Shown: one piece after another, positions 1,062 through 18,100 of the stretch | How positions within the stretch are numbered: the stretch's first letter is position 1 | How the letters are laid out: each line of letters opens with the position of its first letter | Source of the DNA: an uncultured Eubacteriales bacterium | GTDB lineage: Bacteria; Bacillota; Clostridia; TANB77; SIG350 | NCBI GenBank assembly: GCA_964520895.1 | Contig: CAZFOR010000023.1 | Span: 1-18,100 of the forward strand | Direction of reading: 5' to 3' | DNA length: 18,100 nucleotides | Notes under the pieces: generated by a model | Seen by the model: only the letters and a program-made list of their open reading frames with translations | The model's database searches: none | What the model was told of the DNA's origin: nothing | Position numbers and translations under genes: made by a program

Positions 1062-2777
1062 TTACATTTTATCTGGGCAATCAATACCTAATAGTCTCAT
1101 ACCATTTTTTATAACATCACCAACTTGTTTAGTTAGTAATATTCTTGCTTTTTTAATATTTTCATCATCACACATAATTGTATATTTGGCATAATATGTG
1201 CTAAATGCTTGTGCTAAATCTATTATGTATCTAGATAAAATTGAAGGCTCATTTTTTAGCATTGCATTTTCTATTGTATTTGAGAAGTTACCTAATATTT
1301 TAACAATATTTATTTCTTCATCTTCTAATATTAGACTAAAATCTATTTGTGATATATCATTGATATCAATATTTGCTTTTTCTAATATACTTCTTGTTCT
1401 TACATACATAAATTGGATATATGGCCCTGTTTCTCCATTAAAATTAAGAATTGTATCCCAATCAAATATTTCATCTTTAATTCTAGATGATGATAAATCA
1501 TTAAATATTATTGCACCTACACCTACTTTTTTCGCTATTTCATCTTTATTTTCTAAATTAGGGTTTTTATCATTAATTATTTCCCTAGACTTATTTATTG
1601 CTTCATTTATAATATCTTCTAATGAAACTGAATTGCCTTTTCTTGATCCAATTTTTTCTCCATTTTTGTCAACTACTAATCCAAATGAAACATGCTCTGT
1701 TTTGTCAACATACTCTTTATACCCCATTAATTCCATAACTTTAAATATTTGCTTAAAATGTAATTGTTGTTCACCGCCAACTACATAAACCATTTTATCA
1801 AAATTATATTCTTTCATTCTGTATTTAAATGCTGCTAAGTCTCTTGTTGCATATATTGTGGTACCAGCTGATGTTATTATTATACAAGGTGACATATTAT
1901 ACTCATCTAAATCAACTATCTTCGCTCCTTGTGACTCAACTAATAATCCTTTTTCATTTAATTCTTCAACTATTGCATCCATTTTATCATTATAGAAAGC
2001 TTCTCCATTATATGAATCAAATTTTGAATTTAATAAATTATATGTTTTTTCATATTCATTTAAACTTACTTCTTTAATCCATTTCCATGTTTCTACCGCT
2101 TCTTCATCACCTTTTTCAAGTAATATAAACTGCTGTCTTGCAAGATTAGTCAATTCAGGATTTTCTTTTTCCTCTTTACTAAATCTAACATAAACTTTTA
2201 AAATTGAATTTATAGCATCATTTTCAAAATCATATTCAGGGTCATTTTTCCATAAATTTAATCCTGCCATTACTTTTCCAAACTGTATTCCCCAATCACC
2301 TAAATGATTTATTCCTATAACATTATATCCCATAAATTTATATATTTTATACAATGCTCCACCTATAACAGTTGTTCTTAAATGTCCAATATGAAAAGGT
2401 TTTGCAATATTTGGTGATGAATATTCAATAATAGCTGTTTTATTTTCTCCATAATTACTTTTCCCATAATCATCTTTTTTATTGAAAATTTCTGTCATTA
2501 TATCTTTTACAAATATTTGCTTATTTACAAAAAAATTCAAATATCCACCTTCAACTTTTATTTCATTTATTTCTTCATCTACTTCAAACTTTTCTTTTAT
2601 TTCATTTGCAATTACTATTGGTGATTTATGTAACTCTTTTGCCAGTTTAAAACATGGAAATGCATAATCACCCATATCACTATTTGGTGGTACCTCAACA
2701 TATTGCTCAATTTCGTTTTCACTAATATTGGTTATTAATGATATCTTTTTTATAATATTTTCTTTAATTTTAGACAT
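1062..2777 (-). CDS. argS: arginine--tRNA ligase
   Basis: 571 aa with class I HIGH motif (PFHIGHLRTT). The N-terminal Arg-tRNA-binding-like region and C-terminal anticodon-binding region align by eye with bacterial ArgRS. SD AAGGAG lies in the 14-nt gap before the ATG at 2777. Confidence 0.95.
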   Translation of the reverse strand: MSKIKENIIKKISLITNISENEIEQYVEVPPNSDMGDYAFPCFKLAKELHKSPIVIANEIKEKFEVDEEINEIKVEGGYLNFFVNKQIFVKDIMTEIFNKKDDYGKSNYGENKTAIIEYSSPNIAKPFHIGHLRTTVIGGALYKIYKFMGYNVIGINHLGDWGIQFGKVMAGLNLWKNDPEYDFENDAINSILKVYVRFSKEEKENPELTNLARQQFILLEKGDEEAVETWKWIKEVSLNEYEKTYNLLNSKFDSYNGEAFYNDKMDAIVEELNEKGLLVESQGAKIVDLDEYNMSPCIIITSAGTTIYATRDLAAFKYRMKEYNFDKMVYVVGGEQQLHFKQIFKVMELMGYKEYVDKTEHVSFGLVVDKNGEKIGSRKGNSVSLEDIINEAINKSREIINDKNPNLENKDEIAKKVGVGAIIFNDLSSSRIKDEIFDWDTILNFNGETGPYIQFMYVRTRSILEKANIDINDISQIDFSLILEDEEINIVKILGNFSNTIENAMLKNEPSILSRYIIDLAQAFSTYYAKYTIMCDDENIKKARILLTKQVGDVIKNGMRLLGIDCPDKM

Positions 2778-2791
2778 AATTCACTCCTTTT

Positions 2792-5236
2792 CTACTTCTC
2801 CAGTATTTTTTCAATTTGTTTCTTTTTGCTAGAAGTAGTATTTGTTTTTGTTAGTTTTTCTAATGTATTATTTAACATTAATGATGTATCAGTTTTCCTT
2901 AAAACTTGTTTACCATTATTTGAAACATTTTCTTCTAAATCAATATATGTTTCCCTTATAACCTTTTGTTTAGAAACAACTTTACTATTTCTAGAATATG
3001 ATACATCATCATTTCTATATGATTCCAAAGAACTTTCTATTTGTTTTTCTAATAATGGATACACACTATTAAATAATTTATCGTTTTTAACTTTTCTAGT
3101 CTTCTGTTTTTCAATACTGTTTTGTACACTATCAATTACTTCTTTTTTAATGTTATACTTTTCAGATAATTTTTCTTTTGATAACAAAAAATATTCAATA
3201 TTTAATTTTTCGCTACTATTTTTTTCTTTTATAATTAGAGGAATACCTTTTTGTCTAGCTATCATTAAATAAACTTGAAGTTGTGCATTTGGTATATCAA
3301 GTATTTGCGGATATGCTTCAATATAACTATACAAATTATTCTCTATCACTGTATCAATATTTTTCTCAATATTTTGTGTAGGTCTTGCATATAGTATATT
3401 TAATGGCATATCAATATTATTTCTTTCAAATACTTTTTTATTTTTTTCTATGTACTCAGATTTACCTTCAATTAGTAAACTAGGTACTTTTTCTATTTTC
3501 TGTTTTTCAAACCCTATTTTAGTAAGACCTTTATATACTTTTTCAATTTCTTTTTCATCTTCTCTTACTAAAATTTGTGAATTATCAGTAATTATTTTTT
3601 CAGACAAATTATTTTTTTCAAATATTCCAAATATATTTTCTATTTTAACTTTATCACTTTTTATATATATATCTGGATTATCTTGTATAATTTGTTTATA
3701 TTCTTTTGGTTTATGCTGTTTTAAAGTATTTGTTACTTCTCTAATAGTCATAGCACTCGAAAAAGCAATTAAACTAGGTTTATTTTCAATTAACTCTCCA
3801 CCAAATCCTTGATTATTAACTTCTTTTATTACATCTCTTACTTGTTTAGATGATGTTTTATTTAAAACACTAGTATCTTTTTTTAATACATTAATATCTA
3901 CTTTTTCCTCTTTTAATACATTTATAACCTTTTGTACTTCATCAATATTTTTAATTACAGTAATTGATTGCATATTTGATAAGCTTTTTCTATTTACGTA
4001 CTCTGTTTTATCATCATCTAAAAATCTTGACATATTATATACTTTTTCTACAAAAACATATGGTGACACATCTAATACTAGATTTATATCTGGATATGAT
4101 GTAGATAGTTCATTTTTTACTTCAATTAATATTTTAGTATTACCTGATATTAATACTTCTGGGCATGAATAAATTATATATTTGCTCATTTTATTTTGTT
4201 CTAAAACATCAATTATTTTATCTATTTTCTTTTGATTAGATAGTATTAATATACTAGGACAAACAGCTATAATATCCAAACTTAATCCATTTATTTTTAA
4301 TTGATGAATTATATTAGATATTTCATCAATTTTACCTCTTTGCAATATTTCAGGGCAAAATTCTAAAACACTTAGTGGTATATTGTTTTTAATAAGCAAA
4401 TCTATAATTTCACTAACTTGTCTTAAATTTTTTCTTTTTAATATTGCTGGGCATGATAATATTATTGCATTTGGTAACATATTGTTTTTTAGTACATTTA
4501 ACATATATGTTAAATTATCTTCTTTTCCTAACTGTATCATTCCAGAATTATTTTCTTTATTATCATTATCTTCTTCATTTATTTCTTCTTGATTATTTTT
4601 CTCTTTATCTTCATTTTCTTTATTATTATCTGTATCAGTAGTATTACTTATATTATTTACTTCATTATCATTTTTTTCTTTTTCTTTTATATCATCTATT
4701 ATTTGTTTTAATTCTTTTGAAGTTGATTTATATAATATTGCTATATTATTTCTAATTAAAGTTTTATATCCCTTGACTTCTTTTAATACATTTAAGTTAT
4801 CCCTTATAGTTTCATATTTTGCTGCATATAGTATCTTAGCATTTGAAGATGTTCTATCTTCTAATAAATCTATTAACCCTTCCTTTTCAAGTAATGTAAT
4901 TATTTTATCAATTTCTTCTGTATTAGAATTCACATTATTTCCAATTGATATTATTATATTAACATTTACATATGGACTTCTTTTTTTATTCATTTTTTTT
5001 ATGTAATTTAATCTTGATTCAAATTCTTCATCATCATAAATATCTATAACATCTAATAGAGAATTAAACTGATTAATATATCTTATATCTAACCCTATTT
5101 CTCTTAATACTTCTATTAATCTCATTACTCTGTTTATGACTGTGTCGCTTGGCTCATCACCATATCTTTTTTCAAGATATTCAATTACACCAATACTTAC
5201 TTTTAGTTCTCTTCTTAAATATTTATAGAAATCCAT
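2792..5236 (-). CDS. 814-aa helical-repeat protein with mTERF-like 32-residue repeats; function unknown
   Basis: Long uninterrupted ORF with SD AGGAGG before the ATG at 5236. Cys-Pro dipeptides at residues 262, 294, 326 and 358 have exact 32-aa spacing (SCPAIL, FCPEIL, VCPSIL, SCPEVL). More degenerate units extend from about aa 100 to 660. An N/D/E/K low-complexity linker spans aa 184-232. Confidence 0.8.
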   Translation of the reverse strand: MDFYKYLRRELKVSIGVIEYLEKRYGDEPSDTVINRVMRLIEVLREIGLDIRYINQFNSLLDVIDIYDDEEFESRLNYIKKMNKKRSPYVNVNIIISIGNNVNSNTEEIDKIITLLEKEGLIDLLEDRTSSNAKILYAAKYETIRDNLNVLKEVKGYKTLIRNNIAILYKSTSKELKQIIDDIKEKEKNDNEVNNISNTTDTDNNKENEDKEKNNQEEINEEDNDNKENNSGMIQLGKEDNLTYMLNVLKNNMLPNAIILSCPAILKRKNLRQVSEIIDLLIKNNIPLSVLEFCPEILQRGKIDEISNIIHQLKINGLSLDIIAVCPSILILSNQKKIDKIIDVLEQNKMSKYIIYSCPEVLISGNTKILIEVKNELSTSYPDINLVLDVSPYVFVEKVYNMSRFLDDDKTEYVNRKSLSNMQSITVIKNIDEVQKVINVLKEEKVDINVLKKDTSVLNKTSSKQVRDVIKEVNNQGFGGELIENKPSLIAFSSAMTIREVTNTLKQHKPKEYKQIIQDNPDIYIKSDKVKIENIFGIFEKNNLSEKIITDNSQILVREDEKEIEKVYKGLTKIGFEKQKIEKVPSLLIEGKSEYIEKNKKVFERNNIDMPLNILYARPTQNIEKNIDTVIENNLYSYIEAYPQILDIPNAQLQVYLMIARQKGIPLIIKEKNSSEKLNIEYFLLSKEKLSEKYNIKKEVIDSVQNSIEKQKTRKVKNDKLFNSVYPLLEKQIESSLESYRNDDVSYSRNSKVVSKQKVIRETYIDLEENVSNNGKQVLRKTDTSLMLNNTLEKLTKTNTTSSKKKQIEKILEK

Positions 5237-5253
5237 ACGCTACCTCCTTTTTA

Positions 5254-5760
5254 TTATATTATATATTCAAAACCTACTTCTGGATATAATTTTCCATCTA
5301 TATTAGTATCCTTTTCTTTGGATACTCTTCCACCCATTTTTTCATAAAATTTTCTTGATGGAAGATTATCTCTTAAACACCATATTATAATTTTATCTTT
5401 ATTTTCTTTTTTCAAATGATTAACTGCATATGTAAACATTTGTGTTCCTATACCACCATATTTACATTCAGGCTTTACATATATAGCAACTATCTCTCCA
5501 TTATATTCCTTAGAATTATCTGATACTACTTCACCATATCTACAAAATCCTACAATTTCATCATTGGCTTGTGCAACTATAAAGTGGCCTAATTGATAAT
5601 CATTTTTTCTTCTTTCAATATCTTTTTCTCTACTCATATTATCTAAAAATTCATCATCAATAATTCCTTTATATGCTATTTTCCAAGCGTTTATTCTTAT
5701 ATCAACAACTTGCTTTATATCATCATATTGTATGTTTCGTATTAACAATTCTGTTTTCAT
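5254..5760 (-). CDS. GNAT family N-acetyltransferase
   Basis: 168 aa with acetyl-CoA motif A (YVKPECKYGGIGTQMF) and C-terminal FYEKMGG, both typical of GNAT. SD AAGGGGG precedes the ATG at 5760. Confidence 0.85.
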   Translation of the reverse strand: MKTELLIRNIQYDDIKQVVDIRINAWKIAYKGIIDDEFLDNMSREKDIERRKNDYQLGHFIVAQANDEIVGFCRYGEVVSDNSKEYNGEIVAIYVKPECKYGGIGTQMFTYAVNHLKKENKDKIIIWCLRDNLPSRKFYEKMGGRVSKEKDTNIDGKLYPEVGFEYII

Positions 5761-5772
5761 ACAATACCCCCT

Positions 5773-6183
5773 TTATTTTATTAAATCAAGGTTACCATTT
5801 ATAACAATTGGAGAAAAGCCATGTATTTCATCATATAACATTCCTTGTGGAATATCATTATATAAATAGATTTTTTTATTACCCATAGATGCTTCATATA
5901 ATTCTAAAAATGTTGCTCCACCAATATAGTTTTCATTTCCGTTTTTATCAAAATTTAATGCTAAAACAGCATCCATATTATTAATAACTTCTTTAGACCT
6001 TTTATACATTCTAGTTTTAAATTGTGCATGTTCATTTTCACCTAAATCCCAATTTTGTTTTTCTATTAAAGGATTGTCATAGTAATTTGGTAATTCAATT
6101 TGATGTCCTTTTTCCTCCAATTGTTTTTTTATAGGTTCAATTTTGCTATAAAACGATTTACTACAAATAATTAATATTTTCAC
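5773..6183 (-). CDS. small hypothetical protein, possibly nucleoside 2-deoxyribosyltransferase/Rcl-like fold
   Basis: 136 aa. GTG start at 6183 lies 6 nt after SD AAGGAGA, which is embedded in the valS 3' end. The N-terminal strand MKILIICS and the later segment MDAVLALNFD...YIGGATFLELYEA..GNKKIYLY resemble the PF05014-type layout. This is a by-eye assignment only. Confidence 0.55.
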   Translation of the reverse strand: MKILIICSKSFYSKIEPIKKQLEEKGHQIELPNYYDNPLIEKQNWDLGENEHAQFKTRMYKRSKEVINNMDAVLALNFDKNGNENYIGGATFLELYEASMGNKKIYLYNDIPQGMLYDEIHGFSPIVINGNLDLIK

Positions 6184-6184
6184 A

Positions 6185-8812
6185 TTAGTTCTCCTTAATA
6201 TTATTTAATCTTTCTTCAACATTTTTTAACATTTGAATATAGTTTTCTCTTTTTTCTTTTTCTTCATTAATCTTTGCTTCTGGTGCTTTTGATACAAATC
6301 CAGGATTTGATAACATTTTATCTACTCTTTCAATTTCTTTTAAGTATTTATCTTTTTCATTATTTAATCTTTCAATCTCTTCATTGATATCTACTAAATC
6401 ACCTAATGGAATAAATATCTCAATATCTGGTACAGTAATTGATACTGCATTTTTATCAATACCTTGTTTATCCTTTTTAATTTCAAATGTTTCTATATTA
6501 ACTAATTTTTGTAATATTCCTTTTCCATTATTAATAATATCATCTCTATTGTTTGTTACAAATATTGCTGATATTTTTTTAGATGGTGGAACATTCATAT
6601 TAACTTTAACATTTCTAACACTTCTTATTATTTCTTTTGTTAATTCAATATCTTTTTCTTCATTTTCAAAATTAAACTTTTCACTATACTCAGGCCATTT
6701 TGATATCATTATACTTTCTTCTTTTTTGTTAATTTCTAAAAATATCTTTTCAGTTATAAATGGCATAAATGGATGTAATAATTTTAAAGAATTTTCAAGT
6801 ACATATCTTAATGTAAATTCAGCTTCTTTTTTAGTATCACAGTTTTGGTCATATAATCTTGATTTAACCATTTCAATATACCAATCACAGAATTCATACC
6901 ACATAAAATCATATATTTTCTGAAGTCCTATACCCAATTCATAATCATCAATATCTTTTGTAACTTCTGTAATTAATTTATTTAATTTAGATAATATCCA
7001 TTTATCTTCTAAACATAATTTATTTTCATCATAACTATTATCACTATCAATATCTATATTTGATATAACAAATTTTGAAGCATTCCATATTTTATTTGCA
7101 AAATTTTTACTCATATCTAATTTATCCATTGAATATTTAATATCATTAGCAAGTGAAATGTTTAATATAAGTGATAATCTTAATGCATCTGCACCATATT
7201 TTTCTATAACTTCAACAGGATCTATACCATTACCTAAACTTTTAGACATTTTTCTTCCTTGTGCATCTCTAACTAATCCATGCATTAAAACATCTGAGAA
7301 AGGTATTTCTCCCATATGTTCTATTCCTGAAAATATCATTCTAGCAACCCAGAAAAATATAATATCATATGCTGTAACTAATACATTTGTAGGATAAAAG
7401 TATTCTAATTCTTTTGTTTTTTCTGGCCAACCTAATGTTGAAAATGGCCATAATGCTGAGCTAAACCATGTATCTAAAACATCATCATCTTGTTTAAATG
7501 TTGTGCCTCCACATTTAGAACATTTATCTGGCATTTGTTTTGAAACTACTATTTCATTACAATCCTGGCAATAATATGCTGGTATTCTATGTCCCCACCA
7601 TAATTGTCTAGAAATACACCAGTCTCTTATATTTTCCATCCAGTTATAATATGTTTTTTCATGTCTTTGTGGTGTAAATTTTATTTTCCCATTTCTAACA
7701 ACATCTATTGCAGGTTTTGCAAGTCCTTCCATTTTAACAAACCATTGGTTTGAAATTGCAGGTTCAACATTTTTATGACATCTATAACATGTACCTACAT
7801 TATGGTTATATTCTTCTATTTTAATTAATGCACCAGTTTCTTTTAGGTCTTTAACTATTTCTTCTCTTGCTTCATATCTATCTAGTCCTTCATATTTACC
7901 ACCATTTTTGTTTATTTTACCATCATCTGTAAATATTTTTATTATTTCTAAATGATGTTTTTGTCCTATTTCAAAATCATTTGGATCATGTGCAGGTGTT
8001 ATTTTTAATGCACCAGTTCCAAATTCAATATCAACATATTCATCAGCTATAATTGGTATTTCTCTATTTACAAGTGGCAAAATAACTGTTTTACCAATTA
8101 GGTGCTTATATCTGTCATCATTTGGGTTTACTGCTATTGCTGTATCTCCTAACATTGTTTCAGGTCTAGTTGTTGCAATTATTATTTCATCATTACTATC
8201 TTTTGCTTTATACTTTATATGCCAAAAATGTCCTGGTTGGTCTACATATTCAACTTCTGCATCTGATAAAGATGTTTTACATGTCGGACACCAGTTAAGC
8301 ATTCTTTCACCTTTGTATATTAACCCTTTATTATATAAATTTATAAAAACTTGTTCTACTGCATTAGATAATCCATCATCCATTGTAAATCTTTCTTTTG
8401 TCCAATCACAAGAACAACCTAATCTTTTTAACTGACTAATTATTGTTCCACCATATTCCTCTGTCCAGTCCCATGCCATTTTCAAGAATTTTTCTCTACC
8501 TATATCTTCTTTTTTTAATCCTTCTTTTGCTAGTTTTTCAACTAATTTAAGTTCTGTTGCAATACTTGCATGGTCTGTTCCAGGTACCCATAACGCGTTA
8601 TATCCTTGCATTCTTTTTGTTCTAATCAAAATATCTTGTAATGTATTTACAAGTGCGTGACCAATATGTAATTTTGATGTTACATTTGGTGGTGGTATAA
8701 CTATTGTATATGGTGTTTTAGTTTCATCAACCTCTGCCTTAAAATATCCTTTTTCATTCCAATTTTTATATAATTCTTCTTCAAAGTCCAATGGATTATA
8801 TGTTTTTTCCAT
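6185..8812 (-). CDS. valS: valine--tRNA ligase
   Basis: 875 aa with HIGH (KLHIGHALVNT), KMSKS, the CP1 editing region and a C-terminal coiled-coil typical of ValRS. SD AAGGGGG precedes the ATG at 8812. Confidence 0.97.
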   Translation of the reverse strand: MEKTYNPLDFEEELYKNWNEKGYFKAEVDETKTPYTIVIPPPNVTSKLHIGHALVNTLQDILIRTKRMQGYNALWVPGTDHASIATELKLVEKLAKEGLKKEDIGREKFLKMAWDWTEEYGGTIISQLKRLGCSCDWTKERFTMDDGLSNAVEQVFINLYNKGLIYKGERMLNWCPTCKTSLSDAEVEYVDQPGHFWHIKYKAKDSNDEIIIATTRPETMLGDTAIAVNPNDDRYKHLIGKTVILPLVNREIPIIADEYVDIEFGTGALKITPAHDPNDFEIGQKHHLEIIKIFTDDGKINKNGGKYEGLDRYEAREEIVKDLKETGALIKIEEYNHNVGTCYRCHKNVEPAISNQWFVKMEGLAKPAIDVVRNGKIKFTPQRHEKTYYNWMENIRDWCISRQLWWGHRIPAYYCQDCNEIVVSKQMPDKCSKCGGTTFKQDDDVLDTWFSSALWPFSTLGWPEKTKELEYFYPTNVLVTAYDIIFFWVARMIFSGIEHMGEIPFSDVLMHGLVRDAQGRKMSKSLGNGIDPVEVIEKYGADALRLSLILNISLANDIKYSMDKLDMSKNFANKIWNASKFVISNIDIDSDNSYDENKLCLEDKWILSKLNKLITEVTKDIDDYELGIGLQKIYDFMWYEFCDWYIEMVKSRLYDQNCDTKKEAEFTLRYVLENSLKLLHPFMPFITEKIFLEINKKEESIMISKWPEYSEKFNFENEEKDIELTKEIIRSVRNVKVNMNVPPSKKISAIFVTNNRDDIINNGKGILQKLVNIETFEIKKDKQGIDKNAVSITVPDIEIFIPLGDLVDINEEIERLNNEKDKYLKEIERVDKMLSNPGFVSKAPEAKINEEKEKRENYIQMLKNVEERLNNIKEN

Positions 8813-9066
8813 AATAAATTCCCCCTTAACTAATATTAATCATATTAAAATACACTAAAATTAGTCCGATGACGCCGTACAACCACGCCGATAATCTTCA
8901 TTCCTATTGTTGCGTTATTTATATCACCTTTTGGAAAGGTTTTTTTAACAAATTTTCTTGCAGAAAATATCATATTTACTCCTAATAGTAAAATGGTAAA
9001 TCCTAATATTAATAAAATATACTGTAATTTCACTTTAATCTCTCCTAACTAAAATTTTACCAATAA
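8813..9066 (-). promoter_or_regulatory. valS 5' leader (about 250 nt), nature unresolved
   Basis: Long untranslated gap between a good sigma-A promoter and the valS SD. It contains small hairpins (ACCTTT-CCA-AAAGGT; TTTTCT-GCA-AGAAAA) and a GC-rich island at 8865-8892. I could not recognise a canonical T-box sequence. Confidence 0.5.
8845..9033 (-). CDS. possible 62-aa small membrane protein inside the valS leader (alternative reading of that leader)
   Basis: GTG start at 9033 lies 7 nt after AGGAGA, and there is a clear N-terminal TM helix (YILLILGFTILLLGVNMIF). The C-terminal part uses CGG, CGT and CGG Arg codons, which look atypical for this AT-rich genome and argue against coding. Confidence 0.3.
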   Translation of the reverse strand: MKLQYILLILGFTILLLGVNMIFSARKFVKKTFPKGDINNATIGMKIIGVVVRRHRTNFSVF

Positions 9067-9094
9067 AGTATATCACAAAATACAATATTTTCAA
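9067..9094 (-). promoter_or_regulatory. sigma-A type promoter for the valS leader/operon
   Basis: On the minus strand: TTGAAA (9094..9089), a 16-nt spacer ending in TGA, then TATACT (9072..9067), i.e. an extended -10. Confidence 0.55.
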
Positions 9095-9166
9095 ACATTA
9101 TATACAAATTTTTTTATATCAATTTCAAATAATTAATCTATTTTATGTTTTTTAAAAATTAAACAT

Positions 9167-9191
9167 AAAAAAAGAGGTGATTTCTCACCTC
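9167..9191 (-). terminator. rho-independent terminator of the ABC gene
   Basis: Minus-strand GAGGTGA-GAAA-TCACCTC followed by T7, starting 10 nt after the stop at 9201. Confidence 0.8.
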
Positions 9192-9200
9192 CCCGAAAAC

Positions 9201-11162: not shown

Positions 11163-12266
11163 TCATCTATTCCGCTTGTATGCTCCAAACTCTCTTTTAA
11201 TTACATCATCACTAGATAAGTAATCTGCAACTTGTATATATATCCTTTCACCAAAATTATCTATTATAAAATCTATTTCTCCTTTATCTGTCTTACCTAT
11301 ATATACTTCATATCCTCTAGCTATTAATTCATTATATACTATATTTTCTAATCTTCCTCCTGTTTTTTTCTCAACTGGAGATTTTTTTAATTGTAACAAA
11401 CCTAAATCTGTTAAATAATATTTTTCTAATGTAGCCATTACATTCTTTCCACGTATATCATATCTATTTACTTTATTTATGATAAGAGAATTATTTATAT
11501 ATCCAATATAATTTAAAATTGTATCTGCAGTAGTTGATATTTTTTCACTTTTTAAATATTTTGTTATTGAATTAGCAGAAATAACACCACCTATATTTTC
11601 CATAATAAACTGTATTATTCTATTTAAAAGGTTTATATCTTTTATTTTACTTCTTTCAACTATATCAACTAAGATTATTGTATTATATAAATCTTTTAAG
11701 TATAATTTTCTTTCTTGATTACTTTGTGTATTAAATATTTGTGGCATTCCACCCCACTGAATATATTCTAAAAACTCCTTATCTTTATCTAACAATTCCC
11801 CTTTTTCTTTTTCTAATTCTAAAAACTCCTTAAAAGTAAATGGCATCATTTTAATACTAATATATCTGCCAGATAAATGTGTTGCAAGTTCTCCTGATAA
11901 TAATTTACTATTAGAACCAGTAATAAATATACTTGCATTTAATGTAGCCCTAAATGAATTTACTACTTTTTCAAATTCATTTACATTTTGTATTTCATCA
12001 AAAAATAAATAGTATTTTTTTTCATCTTTTATAAGTGATTTAATGTAACTATGAAATTTCTTTGGCTCAGTATAATCTATATAATCATAATCTTCAAAAT
12101 TGATATAAATTATATGACTATCTTGTATTCCTTTCTCTTTTAATTCATTAATTATTTGATTTAATAAAACTGATTTTCCTGAACGCCTTACTCCTACGAT
12201 TACTTTAATTAACTCACTATCAAAAAACGGTCTTATTTTACTTAAATACATTTCTCTCTTAATCAT
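11163..12266 (-). CDS. AAA_14 / DUF4143 family ATPase
   Basis: The ORF track gives 11163..12413. I prefer the ATG at 12266 (MIKREMYLSKIRPFF), which has SD AGGAG. Motifs: Walker A GVRRSGKS, Walker B YYLFFDEIQ, a YYLTDLGLL-type DUF4143 motif, and a C-terminal GEIDFII segment. Confidence 0.85.
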   Translation of the reverse strand: MIKREMYLSKIRPFFDSELIKVIVGVRRSGKSVLLNQIINELKEKGIQDSHIIYINFEDYDYIDYTEPKKFHSYIKSLIKDEKKYYLFFDEIQNVNEFEKVVNSFRATLNASIFITGSNSKLLSGELATHLSGRYISIKMMPFTFKEFLELEKEKGELLDKDKEFLEYIQWGGMPQIFNTQSNQERKLYLKDLYNTIILVDIVERSKIKDINLLNRIIQFIMENIGGVISANSITKYLKSEKISTTADTILNYIGYINNSLIINKVNRYDIRGKNVMATLEKYYLTDLGLLQLKKSPVEKKTGGRLENIVYNELIARGYEVYIGKTDKGEIDFIIDNFGERIYIQVADYLSSDDVIKREFGAYKRNR

Positions 12267-12287
12267 ACTATTCAGCTCCTTTAATAT

Positions 12288-12316
12288 ATAATAACATATA
12301 TTATATATTATGTCAA
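12288..12316 (-). promoter_or_regulatory. sigma-A type promoter of the ATPase gene
   Basis: Minus strand: TTGACA (12316..12311), 17-nt spacer ending TGT, then TATTAT (12293..12288). Confidence 0.55.
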
Positions 12317-12387
12317 ACTTTTTCCATTTATACTCGAAAAATTTTTGGTTTTTTATTTTTTTTCGAGTTAGTAAATATTTCGTGTGT

Positions 12388-12440
12388 AAAAAATAGACAA
12401 AAGTATAAATCATACTTTCATCTATTTGATATTATTATAT
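12388..12440 (-). repeat. 53-bp direct repeat copy 2 (terminator hairpin of the PP-loop gene)
   Basis: Same sequence as 10988..11040, offset by exactly 1400 bp. It starts 12 nt after the stop at 12452. The hairpin plus T-run reads on the minus strand. Confidence 0.85.
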
Positions 12441-12451
12441 CCATATTTAGC

Positions 12452-13840
12452 CTATCTATGCATCGTATATTTCTTTTTTAATACTTCTAAATAAATATCA
12501 GGTACTAAGTTTTCATTATTAAAATATGTATCATAATTTTCATTTACAACATAATTTTGTATATAATCATAATATTTAGAAACTAATATTGGTAAAGCTT
12601 TTATATCATTACTACTTATATATTTTTTAAGTGCATAAATAATCTCATCTTTTGTTCCAACACATTCAAAAGGTTTTTCTATTTCTAGCCCTATTAATTT
12701 TCTAAACTCTAATTCTAATTGTATATCCTCTAACATATTTTTATTAAATATTTCATTTAATTTATCTTTTTGTAAAAATGGTGAAAGTAAAATATATACA
12801 AATACACATTTCGGACATTTCCCACACCAAATATTTTGCTTTATACCTGCATTACAACTTCTAAATATATTTAAATATTTATCATATTTTACTAATTGTT
12901 TTGTGATTTGATACTCACTAATTGGTCTTAATAAACTAAAATATTTAATTTTATCAGTAAAATATTTACTAGTATAATCATTAAAGTCTTGTTCAAATTC
13001 AAAACTTTTTGAATATTGATGGTTTATATTTGTACCTTCAATATTTCCTTCATTACTACTAGATTCATTTGATAAAACAATATATTCTTTACCAAGCAAT
13101 ATTGCTGATAAAAAACTTACAAAAGCTATCATACTAGATATTGGAACATGACCATTTATATATCCTTTTTCATTTAACTCAAATAACTTAGTATCTAAAT
13201 TTCTATCTACCTCAAATGTATCTTTCTCATCAAATCCAGCTACTTTGCATGTATCATATGATGCCTGTCTTTTATGATAAAACATAAACGGAGTGTTTTC
13301 ATATTGTTTTAATAATTCTAATGTAACAATACTATCTTTTCCACCACCTATTGGTATTAAGTTTCCGTTATATTCATATTTATTAAAATCAATATTATTG
13401 AAGCTGCCTTTTAACTCTTTATTTGATATTATTGATATAAAATCATCTATTTCTATATGTTCAAATCCATTTAAATATCTTAATTCACCTAATCCGTTAT
13501 ATATAAGTTTTTGCCACCATTTTGTTTGATAATCATCTAAATATCCACATTCAACATTAAATACCTTGCTACATGTTGTTTTATAGTAACTTATTGCCTC
13601 TGCAATTCCTATATTAAAAATACACATCTTAGATATATCTGAATATATATCAACCATAAAACCTTTTTGTATTTTGTTAATATATATTTTATTATTAAAT
13701 TCAATTTTATTATCCAATGAATATATAAATACTATTTCATATTTATTATCTAACTCGTTAATTATATAGTCTTTATATATAAACTCTTTATATTCACTTC
13801 TTAAATTATTAAACTTTTCTAAATTATTTATTTTATCCAT
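12452..13840 (-). CDS. uncharacterised PP-loop (adenine nucleotide alpha-hydrolase superfamily) ATPase with 4-Cys cluster
   Basis: The ORF track starts at a TTG at 13855. I prefer the ATG at 13840 (MDKINNLEKF), which has SD GAAAGGA. GGGKDS is encoded at 13331..13348. C-x9-C-x2-C-x2-C (CNAGIKQNIWCGKCPKC) is encoded at 12806..12856. Confidence 0.8.
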   Translation of the reverse strand: MDKINNLEKFNNLRSEYKEFIYKDYIINELDNKYEIVFIYSLDNKIEFNNKIYINKIQKGFMVDIYSDISKMCIFNIGIAEAISYYKTTCSKVFNVECGYLDDYQTKWWQKLIYNGLGELRYLNGFEHIEIDDFISIISNKELKGSFNNIDFNKYEYNGNLIPIGGGKDSIVTLELLKQYENTPFMFYHKRQASYDTCKVAGFDEKDTFEVDRNLDTKLFELNEKGYINGHVPISSMIAFVSFLSAILLGKEYIVLSNESSSNEGNIEGTNINHQYSKSFEFEQDFNDYTSKYFTDKIKYFSLLRPISEYQITKQLVKYDKYLNIFRSCNAGIKQNIWCGKCPKCVFVYILLSPFLQKDKLNEIFNKNMLEDIQLELEFRKLIGLEIEKPFECVGTKDEIIYALKKYISSNDIKALPILVSKYYDYIQNYVVNENYDTYFNNENLVPDIYLEVLKKKYTMHR

Positions 13841-13890
13841 AATATATCCTTTCAATTATATATAATATATATTTATTTTCTATTTAATAT

Positions 13891-13962: not shown

Positions 13963-14676
13963 CTATATTTTTTGTTTAAAATCTTCTAATATTTTTTTTT
14001 CTATTCTACTAACTTGTACTTGAGATATTCCTAGAATCTTGCTTATCTCAGTTTGAGTTTTCTGCCTATAATATCTAAGCAATATTATTTGTTTATCTCT
14101 ATCATTCAAATTATTTATCATATTTTTAACTAAAATAGTATTTGTAGACACTTCTTGTTCATCAATATTTGTTGATAACATATCTAAAACAGTATTATTA
14201 TCCTCATCATTACCTATTGTATTTTCAATATATTCAGGCTTATAGTTGCATTCCATAGCTTCTATTATATCATCAATAGGAACTTCTAATTGTTTTGATA
14301 ATTCACTAATTGTAATTTCTTTACCATATTGATTCAAATACCTTTGTTTACAATCATATATTTTATAACTTAATTCTTTTATACTTCTACTGACTTTAAT
14401 AATTCCGTCATCTCGTATAAACCTTTTTATTTCTCCCATTATAACTGGAACTAAATAGGTTGATAATTTAGTATTAAAATCAAAATTAAAATTTCTTATA
14501 CCTTTTATAAACCCTTCACAACCTATTTGAAACAAATCTTCTTTTTCATAATCTCTATTACTAAATTTTTTTACTATATTCCATACTAATTTTATATTTT
14601 CATCTAATAGTTTTGACATTGCTTCTTTATTTCCATTTTGTGCTTTTAGAATAGTCAATCTTAAATCTCTAGTCAT
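13963..14676 (-). CDS. sigF: sporulation sigma factor F
   Basis: 237 aa. Region 2 (DLFQIGCEGFIKGIRNF, STYLVPVIMGEIKRFIRDDGIIKVSRS) and region 4 (ISQVQVSRIEKKIL) closely match B. subtilis SigF. The gene is third in the spoIIAA-spoIIAB-sigF order. Confidence 0.92.
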   Translation of the reverse strand: MTRDLRLTILKAQNGNKEAMSKLLDENIKLVWNIVKKFSNRDYEKEDLFQIGCEGFIKGIRNFNFDFNTKLSTYLVPVIMGEIKRFIRDDGIIKVSRSIKELSYKIYDCKQRYLNQYGKEITISELSKQLEVPIDDIIEAMECNYKPEYIENTIGNDEDNNTVLDMLSTNIDEQEVSTNTILVKNMINNLNDRDKQIILLRYYRQKTQTEISKILGISQVQVSRIEKKILEDFKQKI

Positions 14677-14720
14677 GCCAAAATCTCCTCTTTTGTAAAA
14701 TTTATTTAATTAAATATGTA

Positions 14721-15146
14721 TTACTCTTTTTGTGATATTTTCTTTTTCATAATTACTTTTGTACCTAGTTTTAAATTAGATTCAATTTCTAATTCATCCA
14801 TAAAGCTCTCCATTATTGTAAATCCCATACCAGATCTTTCTAAGTCAGGTTTTGATGTGTATAATGCTTGTCTTGCTAAATTAATATTTTCAATTCCTTT
14901 ACCTTTATCTGATATTTCAATTTCAATTGTTTTATCAATTATTTTACATACAATAGTTATAACACCTTCCATGTTTTCATATCCATGTATTATTGAGTTT
15001 GTTACAGCTTCTGATACAGCAGTTTTTATATCAGCCATTTGATCAATAGTAGGATCTAATTGTGCTGCAAATGCTGAAACTGCAATTCTTGCAAATGATT
15101 CATTATTTGATTTACTTAAAAATTCTAGTTTCATTATATTTTCCAT
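14721..15146 (-). CDS. spoIIAB: anti-sigma F factor (serine protein kinase)
   Basis: 141 aa GHKL ATPase with N-box [15 protein letters not shown]1 DKGKGI and G2 SGMGFT. The ATG lies 2 nt after the spoIIAA stop. Confidence 0.92.
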
Positions 15147-17370: not shown

Positions 17371-17400
17371 AACAGAAATAGAAAATCTATTTCTGTTTTT
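17371..17400. terminator. bidirectional terminator between convergent genes
   Basis: AACAGAAATAG - AAAAT - CTATTTCTGTT with an A-run before and a T-run after. The right arm overlaps the eno stop codon. Confidence 0.75.
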
Positions 17401-18100
17401 GTATTATCTCATTATTATATTTAGCACTGTTTCCTAGTTCATCTTCTATTTGAATTAACCTGTTATATTTTGATACCCTATCTGTTCTACAAGGTGCACC
17501 ACTTTTTATCTGTCCTACATTTAAGGCAACTGCTAAATCTGCAATAGTTGTATCTTCTGTCTCACCTGACCTATGTGATATAACACATTTATATCCATTT
17601 TGCCTTGCATATTCAATTACATCTAAACTTTCTGTTAATGTTCCAATTTGATTTAATTTTATTAATATACTATTAGCAGAATTTTGCTTAATTCCTTTTT
17701 TTAATCTTTGTATATTTGTAACAAAAAGGTCATCACCTACTAGTTGTACTCTATTACCTAGTAAACTAGTTAATTTTGTCCAATTATCGAAATCCTCTTC
17801 TGACAAACAATCTTCTAATGAAATAATAGGATACTTATGTGACAACTCACTAAAATATTCTATCATCTCATTTGGAGTTTTTAATATATTACTTTTCCAA
17901 AAATAGTAATATCCCTCTTTTCCTATTTTTTTTGCTTCTTCATACATTTCAGTTGCAGCAATATCTAGTGCAAACATAAAATCTGTACCTAGTATATATC
18001 CTGCCTTTTCAACTGCTTTTGATAAATACTTTAATGCTTGTTCATCATTTTCTAAATTTGGTGCAAAACCTCCCTCATCTCCAACAGAAGTAGTATACCC
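17387..18100 (-). CDS. eno: enolase, C-terminal part (gene continues beyond the window)
   Basis: The frame is open to position 18100 ([15 protein letters not shown]...). Contains [45 protein letters not shown] and IEDELG. Confidence 0.95.

Follow-up and report, generated by a model that had tools for sequence, protein, structure and literature searches.

Within an 18,100-nucleotide (nt) stretch of DNA from an uncultured Eubacteriales bacterium (contig CAZFOR010000023.1 of GenBank assembly GCA_964520895.1; the whole stretch is called the window hereafter), we investigated a gene that lies directly upstream of argS, the gene of arginyl-tRNA synthetase (ArgRS), and downstream of valS, the gene of valyl-tRNA synthetase (ValRS). 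This gene, termed gene X here, is a real gene without annotation or name. It opens with an ATG at 5236, closes with a TAG at 2794–2792 on the minus strand and encodes protein X of 814 amino acids (aa); the ATG of argS follows at 2777, 14 nt past the stop. An earlier note on this DNA had reported the open reading frame (ORF) and its distance to argS. Both stand, and the sole correction concerns the strand, which is minus. The product appears to be soluble and non-enzymatic, an alpha-solenoid with the fold of mTERF proteins, an assignment that we consider highly probable as far as the fold is concerned. No match of protein X to enzyme, phage or defence families was obtained.

Repeat architecture of protein X

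The most regular units of protein X are marked by Cys-Pro dipeptides at residues 262, 294, 326 and 358, which keep a strict 32-aa register; the positions and the unit sequences agree exactly with those quoted in the earlier note. Any two of these four units share 6–12 of 32 residues (19–38% identity). Their summed pairwise BLOSUM62 score is 223; reshuffling these residues gave −153 ± 31 (z = 12), and 0 of 20,000 shuffles reached the observed value. Over aa 236–665, the autocorrelation shows positive peaks at lags 32 and 64 only.

A repeat hidden Markov model (HMM), built by iteration over the orthologues of protein X, located 11 units in the protein of the window at a domain E ≤ 0.01 (at aa 103, 167, 236, 263, 295, 327, 359, 428, 521, 554 and 585). 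The model consensus is PEILIKGNEKEIEKIIEELKKNNIDLNII, and the units follow the pattern P-E-I-L-x-x-G-x-x-x-E-I-x-x-I-I-x-x-L-x-x-x-x-I. Among the looser units proposed previously, those near aa 520, 552 and 584 were recovered by the HMM; those near aa 486 and 642 did not score significantly, despite showing the same helix pattern in the structure model. Protein X consists of about 16 units of ~32 aa in three blocks, four of them strict and the rest looser (Table 1). The acidic linker behind the N-terminal block differs in length among orthologues, and block A is the portion that aligns with the tandem-repeat relatives and with the relative P0016, both described below.

The basic C-terminal domain combines helices with a three-stranded sheet at aa 741–755 and carries two strongly conserved family motifs, RKIKN..LYN..YPIL and VSKQKVIRExYLDLE. 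Modelled separately with AlphaFold2, it reached a predicted local distance difference test score (pLDDT) of 82.7 and a predicted template modelling score (pTM) of 0.77. In the exhaustive profile search it was matched by orthologues (fragments) only. The separate model gave no Foldseek match against PDB below E = 1, and the domain has no Pfam match; the best structural hits were very weak ones to winged-helix-type regulators (probability < 0.06), and no fold is assigned to it. A double-stranded RNA-binding domain was considered for this region, as the order of helix, three strands and helix at aa 719–774 is reminiscent of one, and is not claimed, with no support from Foldseek or Pfam.

Table 1 Coordinates of gene X, the parts of its product and neighbouring features in the window
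Feature	Position	Strand	Basis
Gene X, 814-aa mTERF-fold (predicted) helical-repeat protein	2792..5236	minus	ORF translation; orthologues at 7 other loci
Strong gene X ribosome-binding site AAAGGAGG, 6 nt before ATG	5243..5250	minus	read directly from sequence
X–argS spacer, 14 nt, with argS ribosome-binding site AAGGAG (2789–2784)	2778..2791	minus	read from sequence
N-terminal helical block, aa 1–189, ~4 looser three-helix units	4670..5236	minus	AlphaFold2 helices; HMM matches at aa 103–121 and 167–185
Acidic Asn/Glu/Asp-rich disordered linker, aa 190–235, net charge −11	4532..4669	minus	pLDDT < 50
Repeat block A, aa 236–390, five three-helix units	4067..4531	minus	AlphaFold2 model, repeat HMM
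The four units of strict 32-aa periodicity, aa 261–388 (Cys-Pro 262/294/326/358)	4073..4456	minus	sequence, shuffle test
Non-repeat insert between blocks, aa 391–427, conserved PYVFVEK, short strands, low-confidence loop 410–413	3956..4066	minus	alignment, AlphaFold2 model
Repeat block B, aa 428–665, 7–8 three-helix units	3242..3955	minus	AlphaFold2 model, repeat HMM
Basic C-terminal domain, aa 666–814, isoelectric point (pI) 9.5, net charge +9	2795..3241	minus	AlphaFold2 model, charge calculation
argS, arginine--tRNA ligase, immediately downstream of gene X	1062..2777	minus	TIGR00456, 524 bits
GNAT acetyltransferase gene	5254..5760	minus	family match
136-aa protein, no family	5773..6183	minus	no Pfam, NCBIfam or PHROGs match
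valS, valine--tRNA ligase, first large gene of the unit	6185..8812	minus	NF004349, 1246 bits
Conserved 62-aa small ORF with hydrophobic N-terminal half, just upstream of valS	8845..9033	minus	comparison with L002 and L006
Terminator-like hairpin (9194–9171), then promoter-like site with extended −10 (9094–9067)	9067..9194	minus	consensus matches only
spoIIAB (206 bits, above cut-off; encodes anti-sigma F factor), then sigma factor gene	13963..15146	minus	model scores

Predicted fold and homology to mTERF proteins

The AlphaFold2 model of full-length protein X, computed from a shallow alignment of 8 sequences, reached a mean pLDDT of 80.9 and a pTM of 0.52, with disorder only in the acidic linker, the loop at 410–413 and the last 15 residues. 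Its secondary structure (DSSP) is serially repeated, with one helix of 12–14 residues followed by two helices of 4–7 residues. This long-short-short unit occurs five times in aa 239–388, seven to eight times in aa 431–663 and more loosely in aa 1–189. The mTERF repeat is defined by ~30 aa with two helices and a short third, and the predicted structure shows this arrangement with a period of 32.

In a Foldseek search of the model against PDB, ranks 1–11 were all mTERF proteins (probability 1.00), with modest E-values of 3.6e-3 to 9e-2 and TM scores of 0.35–0.49 normalised on the target. The matches comprise MTERF1, MTERF3, MTERF4 and the mTERF protein of the Tetrahymena mitoribosome. DNA-bound MTERF1 (3n6s) ranked first (E 3.6e-3, probability 1.00), and MTERF4 chains, bound to rRNA and NSUN4 on mitoribosome assembly intermediates (7odr, 7o9k), occupied ranks 6–9, 11 and 13. 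The hits that follow ranks 1–11 are designed repeat proteins at much lower probability. TPR, HEAT, ARM, PPR and PUF proteins were absent from the PDB matches. Pfam repeat families gave no significant match either: the scan of protein X returned two sub-threshold hits to non-repeat families, and the lone TPR-type entry in the search with the family was TPR_IF140_C (E 0.6, far under the cut-off). The overall predicted fold superposes on the solved mTERF structures. The comparison of predicted and solved structures proposed in the earlier note, which had named TPR, HEAT and PPR as competing repeat classes, thus came out in favour of mTERF.

At the level of sequence, the link to the Pfam mTERF family (PF02536; gathering threshold 23.1 bits) is transitive. 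The family profile of protein X matches the relative P0016 with E 2.2e-13, placing block A on P0016 residues 52–139. P0016 in turn matches Pfam mTERF at residues 4–133 with 42.3 bits (E 5.7e-11) and two individually significant stretches after bias correction by HMMER, so that the Cys-Pro block and the Pfam family align to one and the same region of P0016. A second relative, P0020, also passes the threshold (31 bits); in total, 8 of the 44 relatives found by profile search match Pfam mTERF. A profile-profile alignment (hhalign) of the X family with the paralogous P0016/P0019 group covers 248 columns at X aa 422–672 (99.4%, E 1.5e-21); it is in register and extends to NIxKNIDxLIENxL, a closing motif outside the repeats. 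When P0016 was used as a bridge to search PDB sequences, nothing useful was returned.

The mTERF motif has a conserved Pro at position 8 and hydrophobic residues at 11, 18 and 25 (PMC11417379, summarising Roberti et al. 2009). Most units of protein X carry the Pro with Leu or Ile three residues on, and these are the most conserved positions among the orthologues. Counted from Pro = 8, the two hydrophobic positions further on lie at 19 and 26, a shift by one relative to 18 and 25 in the eukaryotic motif (PMC11417379). Because the structural matches and the transitive homology point to the same superfamily, we assign protein X to it, and regard the mTERF fold as very likely correct. On sequence grounds, protein X is a member by transitive homology, with the direct Pfam membership test failed. 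The mTERF-type solenoid proposed in the earlier note is supported by these two independent lines.

The comparison with the eukaryotic proteins (MTERF1–4, plant mTERF1–35) shows likenesses. They share units of 30–32 aa with two helices and a short third, an all-alpha solenoid, and the conserved Pro with Leu or Ile three residues on; at the top of the structural match list, every natural protein is a solved mTERF. Unlike them, gene X is a bacterial, chromosomal gene in an operon with valS and argS, and not nucleus-encoded with a product acting in mitochondria or plastids. Protein X is also two to three times longer, with ~16 units versus ~8 for MTERF1 as solved. An acidic linker interrupts it, its end is formed by a unique basic domain, and it lacks a direct PF02536 match.

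Conserved synteny and bacterial relatives

Orthologues of protein X are rare, with only about seven in public data. A word-indexed search found one other cluster only (44% identity), and an exhaustive profile search of 1.84 billion representatives with the X family yielded 44 proteins at E ≤ 1e-3. Only P0002–P0007, P0010 and one small fragment among these are orthologues. Further orthologues came, one each, from a GTDB genome (a Clostridiales metagenome-assembled genome (MAG), the nearest genome record to X), a JGI metagenome and an ENA cluster member. None bears a name in any source searched; the one name returned in any search was "hypothetical protein", for a member of family Y (see below). 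Regarding a phage or defence origin, we obtained no PADLOC hit, no structural match in BFVD and no relative in IMG/VR, and PHROGs gave a single sub-threshold match, for the orthologue P0049 (E 0.0073).

Gene X lies directly upstream of argS in 8/8 loci, the gap ranging from −14 to +14 nt, and no gene intervenes in any of them. Upstream, valS is present in all seven loci in which this side is visible, at a spacing of 13–77 nt in every locus but the window, where two small genes intervene. The survey of the valS...argS neighbourhood suggested in the earlier note therefore found the X–argS linkage kept, and not a gene scattered over unrelated contexts. Between loci, X proteins are 32–45% identical, compared with 61–78% for ValRS and ArgRS; gene X therefore evolves fast yet keeps its position.

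The window has a G+C content of ~23% and nearly all of its genes on the minus strand. The neighbours named in the earlier note, a GNAT gene upstream, argS downstream and valS in the same unit, were borne out by family matches, and the gene after argS in minus-strand order encodes a polysaccharide deacetylase. The hairpin and promoter-like site upstream of valS are likely, judging from consensus matches, to mark the start of the transcription unit. The apparent leader of valS is in fact the gene of a small protein, probably a membrane one: the 62-aa ORF is conserved in locus L002 at the DNA level, its C-terminus changed by a one-base indel relative to L002, and has a counterpart of 64 aa in L006. 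The 136-aa gene and the GNAT gene between valS and gene X are confined to the lineage of the window and are absent from this position in L001–L004, L006 and L007; L006 carries a GNAT gene on the far side of valS, upstream of it. Gene X is taken to share a transcript with valS and to be coupled in translation to argS.

Control of aminoacyl-tRNA synthetase genes by T-box elements is common in Firmicutes. Upstream of valS and argS (window 8813–9200 and 2778–2791; L002 whole), searches for a T-box or other Rfam element were negative both with the gathering threshold and with a cut-off of E ≤ 1, and argS in the window has no leader of its own. The missing T-box is notable because such control is so common for these genes.

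Further upstream, the sigma factor gene after spoIIAB reaches 281 of the 321 bits that the SigF model sets as its cut-off, and encodes a SigF/SigG-type sporulation sigma factor. The presence of spoIIAB and a sigF-like gene marks the host, whose genome is very AT-rich, as a spore-former within the Clostridia. A 467-aa ORF without family match (12452–13855, minus strand) and, adjoining it, an AAA_14/DUF4143 ATPase gene (11163–12413, minus strand) are flanked by the sigF-like gene on one side and an ABC transporter gene on the other. A 196-aa ORF (17387–17977, minus strand) matches the enolase C-terminal barrel only (Pfam profile positions 101–294) and possibly represents an enolase gene that is truncated or split; it lies inside the window, 123 nt short of its end.

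Three groups of bacterial mTERF-like proteins emerge from our searches: the X family, family Y and a group with near-perfect tandem repeats. The mTERF fold thus appears to have diversified in such Clostridia, with at least two further mTERF-like families besides X. Family Y (P0019, P0025) comprises proteins of 1050–1315 aa with an N-terminal solenoid and a long Glu/Lys-rich tail. Its genes invariably have a lexA-like gene on one side and uvrC on the other, with glyS and obg further upstream, in the order glyS-obg-lexA-like-Y-uvrC (loci L008 8001–11948, L010 8001–11237 and L011–L014). The member named above stems from a Clostridium sp. MAG. Like X, family Y belongs to AT-rich Clostridia, holds a fixed housekeeping position and shows clear homology to X along ~250 block B residues, among them those of the closing motif NIxxNxxxLIENxL. 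The two families differ in that Y sits at lexA-like/uvrC and X at valS/argS, and in that Y has its long Glu/Lys-rich C-terminal region where X has a compact basic domain. Moreover, short fragments of Y pass the Pfam mTERF threshold, unlike X, and full-length members have no precomputed Pfam domain.

Members of the tandem-repeat group (P0008, P0009, P0011–P0015 and similar profile matches; L009 2588–4303) have near-perfect units of 31–33 aa (for example CLSVLARGKAEEIKEIFKVLNENGIQKETIEN), an N-terminus beginning MITKEEL... and a C-terminal domain of ~250 aa without Pfam match. A sigma-factor-like nature of this C-terminal domain was considered and dropped, with no Pfam support. Block A of protein X is closest in sequence to P0008, P0011 and P0013 of this group.

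Such proteins resemble the pTERFs, prokaryotic mTERF-like DNA binders described from Clostridia MAGs in Nucleic Acids Res 2024 (PMC11417379), two members of which bind specific DNA motifs with nanomolar dissociation constants (PMC11417379). They originate from uncultured Bacillota/Clostridia genomes, in metagenome assemblies only, and consist of 3–11 near-identical tandem units; pTERF1 was catalogued with a period of 35 and lacks the conserved Pro and Leu (PMC11417379). The tandem-repeat group may be the published pTERF family, to which it is likened by description only. Protein X shares with the pTERFs the Bacillota-type origin in metagenome assemblies only and, in its predicted structure, the prokaryotic, mTERF-like three-helix unit. 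It departs from the near-identical, strictly tandem pTERF arrays in having ~16 degenerate units of 32 aa in three blocks: even the four in strict register have the low pairwise identity given above, and the repeats are broken by a linker and an insert and followed by a non-repeat domain of 150 aa. It also keeps Pro-x-x-Leu and combines the acidic linker and unique basic domain with a fixed position in a synthetase operon. The X family is set apart from pTERF by the published description of the latter and is itself undescribed.

Proposed function and alternative explanations

Nucleic-acid binding is common to every characterised mTERF-fold protein (PMC7909791, PMC7826268, PMC11417379). Double-stranded DNA (dsDNA) is bound by MTERF1, mTERF6, mTERF8, pTERF1 and pTERF2, and the RNA targets include rRNA for MTERF4 and mTERF9 as well as intron or tRNA transcripts (PMC7909791, PMC7826268, PMC11417379); binding to tRNA genes and transcripts is exemplified by mTERF6 at trnI.2, and binding to rRNA by mTERF9 (PMC7909791, PMC7826268). 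Because every characterised protein of this fold does so, protein X can be expected, with somewhat better than even confidence, to bind nucleic acid of some kind.

A possible precedent is MTERF4–NSUN4, a human mitoribosome assembly adaptor in which the solenoid holds RNA and another part holds the enzyme partner. Protein X, made from a gene transcribed with valS and coupled in translation to argS, would bind nucleic acid along its solenoid, as an adaptor or clamp and not as a catalyst, and, following this pattern, would serve as an RNA-directed adaptor working with ArgRS. The likeness lies in an mTERF solenoid alongside an RNA-handling enzyme, with which X is co-expressed. The differences are that the partner enzyme would be an aminoacyl-tRNA synthetase and not a methyltransferase, that the contact with ArgRS and the binding of RNA are conjectural, and that the C-terminal domain of protein X has no counterpart in MTERF4–NSUN4. 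We hold this explanation as a whole, an mTERF-fold solenoid acting as a nucleic-acid-binding, ArgRS-linked adaptor, only tentatively and at a little less than an even chance. Its RNA-directed version, with an RNA preference and an ArgRS contact argued by analogy, is doubtful when taken by itself; we lean slightly towards it over the alternatives because the X–argS junction is unbroken. The narrower proposal of a dedicated partner of ArgRS, perhaps also of ValRS, whose solenoid would bind tRNA or other translation RNA and tether or regulate the synthetase, seems rather improbable.

Several observations weigh against an RNA-directed ArgRS adaptor of the mTERF type. At E ≤ 10, PF02536 was matched neither by protein X or its repeat region alone nor by three orthologues or the consensus of the family, and searches of Pfam, NCBIfam and PDB (phmmer/hmmsearch) with protein X, a 3-sequence profile, the repeat region, the orthologues and the consensus gave no meaningful match, so that the direct profile check put forward in the earlier note turned out negative. 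X proteins are acidic to neutral overall (pI 4.9–6.5), and their repeat blocks have almost zero net charge. Exposed repeat positions vary strongly among orthologues, and such rapid divergence is not expected of a surface that docks on tRNA, rRNA or ArgRS. Neither tRNA genes near gene X or its relatives nor a T-box near gene X were found. Finally, operon membership by itself is no proof of shared function, and the closest bacterial relatives of protein X, if they are pTERFs, bind DNA.

The last point leads to the strongest alternative, namely that protein X is a sequence-specific dsDNA binder of the MTERF1/pTERF type, acting at some chromosomal site as a roadblock to transcription or replication or as a regulator, with the operon reflecting shared expression only. 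We consider this unlikely, to the same degree as the RNA-directed version. The top structural match is DNA-bound MTERF1, block A is closest to tandem-repeat proteins that resemble the DNA-binding pTERFs by description, the paralogous family Y occupies a DNA-repair setting between a lexA-like gene and uvrC, and the fast change of exposed residues fits a binder that co-evolves with its target. The resemblance of these relatives to pTERF, however, is one of description and not of the pTERF1 sequence. Protein X is, moreover, acidic to neutral overall, no candidate target site has been identified, and the unbroken coupling to argS in 8/8 loci would be left unexplained.

Helical solenoids are common protein scaffolds, and protein X could also be a protein-only scaffold that organises, for example, ArgRS, ValRS or others, with the solenoid used in the manner of HEAT or ARM repeats. 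The near-zero net charge of the repeat blocks and the acidic overall pI would suit such a role, and translational coupling as seen with argS is typical of genes with co-assembling products. We nevertheless judge it improbable: weak surface conservation disfavours docking on synthetases that are themselves highly conserved, a strongly basic domain (net +9) forms the C-terminus, and the characterised proteins of this fold all bind nucleic acid (PMC7909791, PMC7826268, PMC11417379). That the mTERF likeness is convergent or compositional, with protein X an unrelated Lys/Ile/Asn/Glu-rich helical repeat and the profile links due to low-complexity bias, is very improbable: a genome of ~23% G+C, the lack of any direct PF02536 match, the many spurious summed Pfam hits of repeat-rich relatives without an individually significant stretch and the loss of the Pfam mTERF match of their fragments by full-length family Y members would fit it, but Foldseek ranks 1–11 are mTERF only with designed repeats next at much lower probability, the Pfam match of P0016 lies above the cut-off with two significant, bias-corrected stretches, the hhalign alignment keeps 248 columns in register including the non-repeat NIxKNIDxLIENxL, and most units carry the Pro-x-x-Leu hallmark.

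mTERF proteins are usually described as a eukaryotic invention for the control of organelle genomes that lacks relatives in bacteria. Candidate relatives from prokaryotes were first described as late as 2024 (PMC11417379). The earlier note had called a bacterial mTERF-type solenoid linked to synthetases unusual; with the pTERFs it has become less unprecedented (PMC11417379), while the linkage of X to a synthetase gene holds in all loci. Protein X represents a different and rare bacterial mTERF branch, large and built as a degenerate rather than a perfect tandem array, in a chromosomal housekeeping setting and fixed beside an aminoacyl-tRNA synthetase gene. Together with the related families, it provides a concrete system in which to study the origin of the mTERF fold and the role of such a solenoid in a cell free of organelles. 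Should protein X bind DNA specifically, it would be a long, modular addition to the potentially programmable repeat proteins. If ArgRS is its working partner, protein X would represent a novel kind of synthetase accessory factor in bacteria and a bacterial counterpart of the MTERF4–NSUN4 adaptor or of eukaryotic multi-synthetase scaffolds, and the mTERF fold would have a history linked to translation in bacteria, older than its organellar use or parallel to it.

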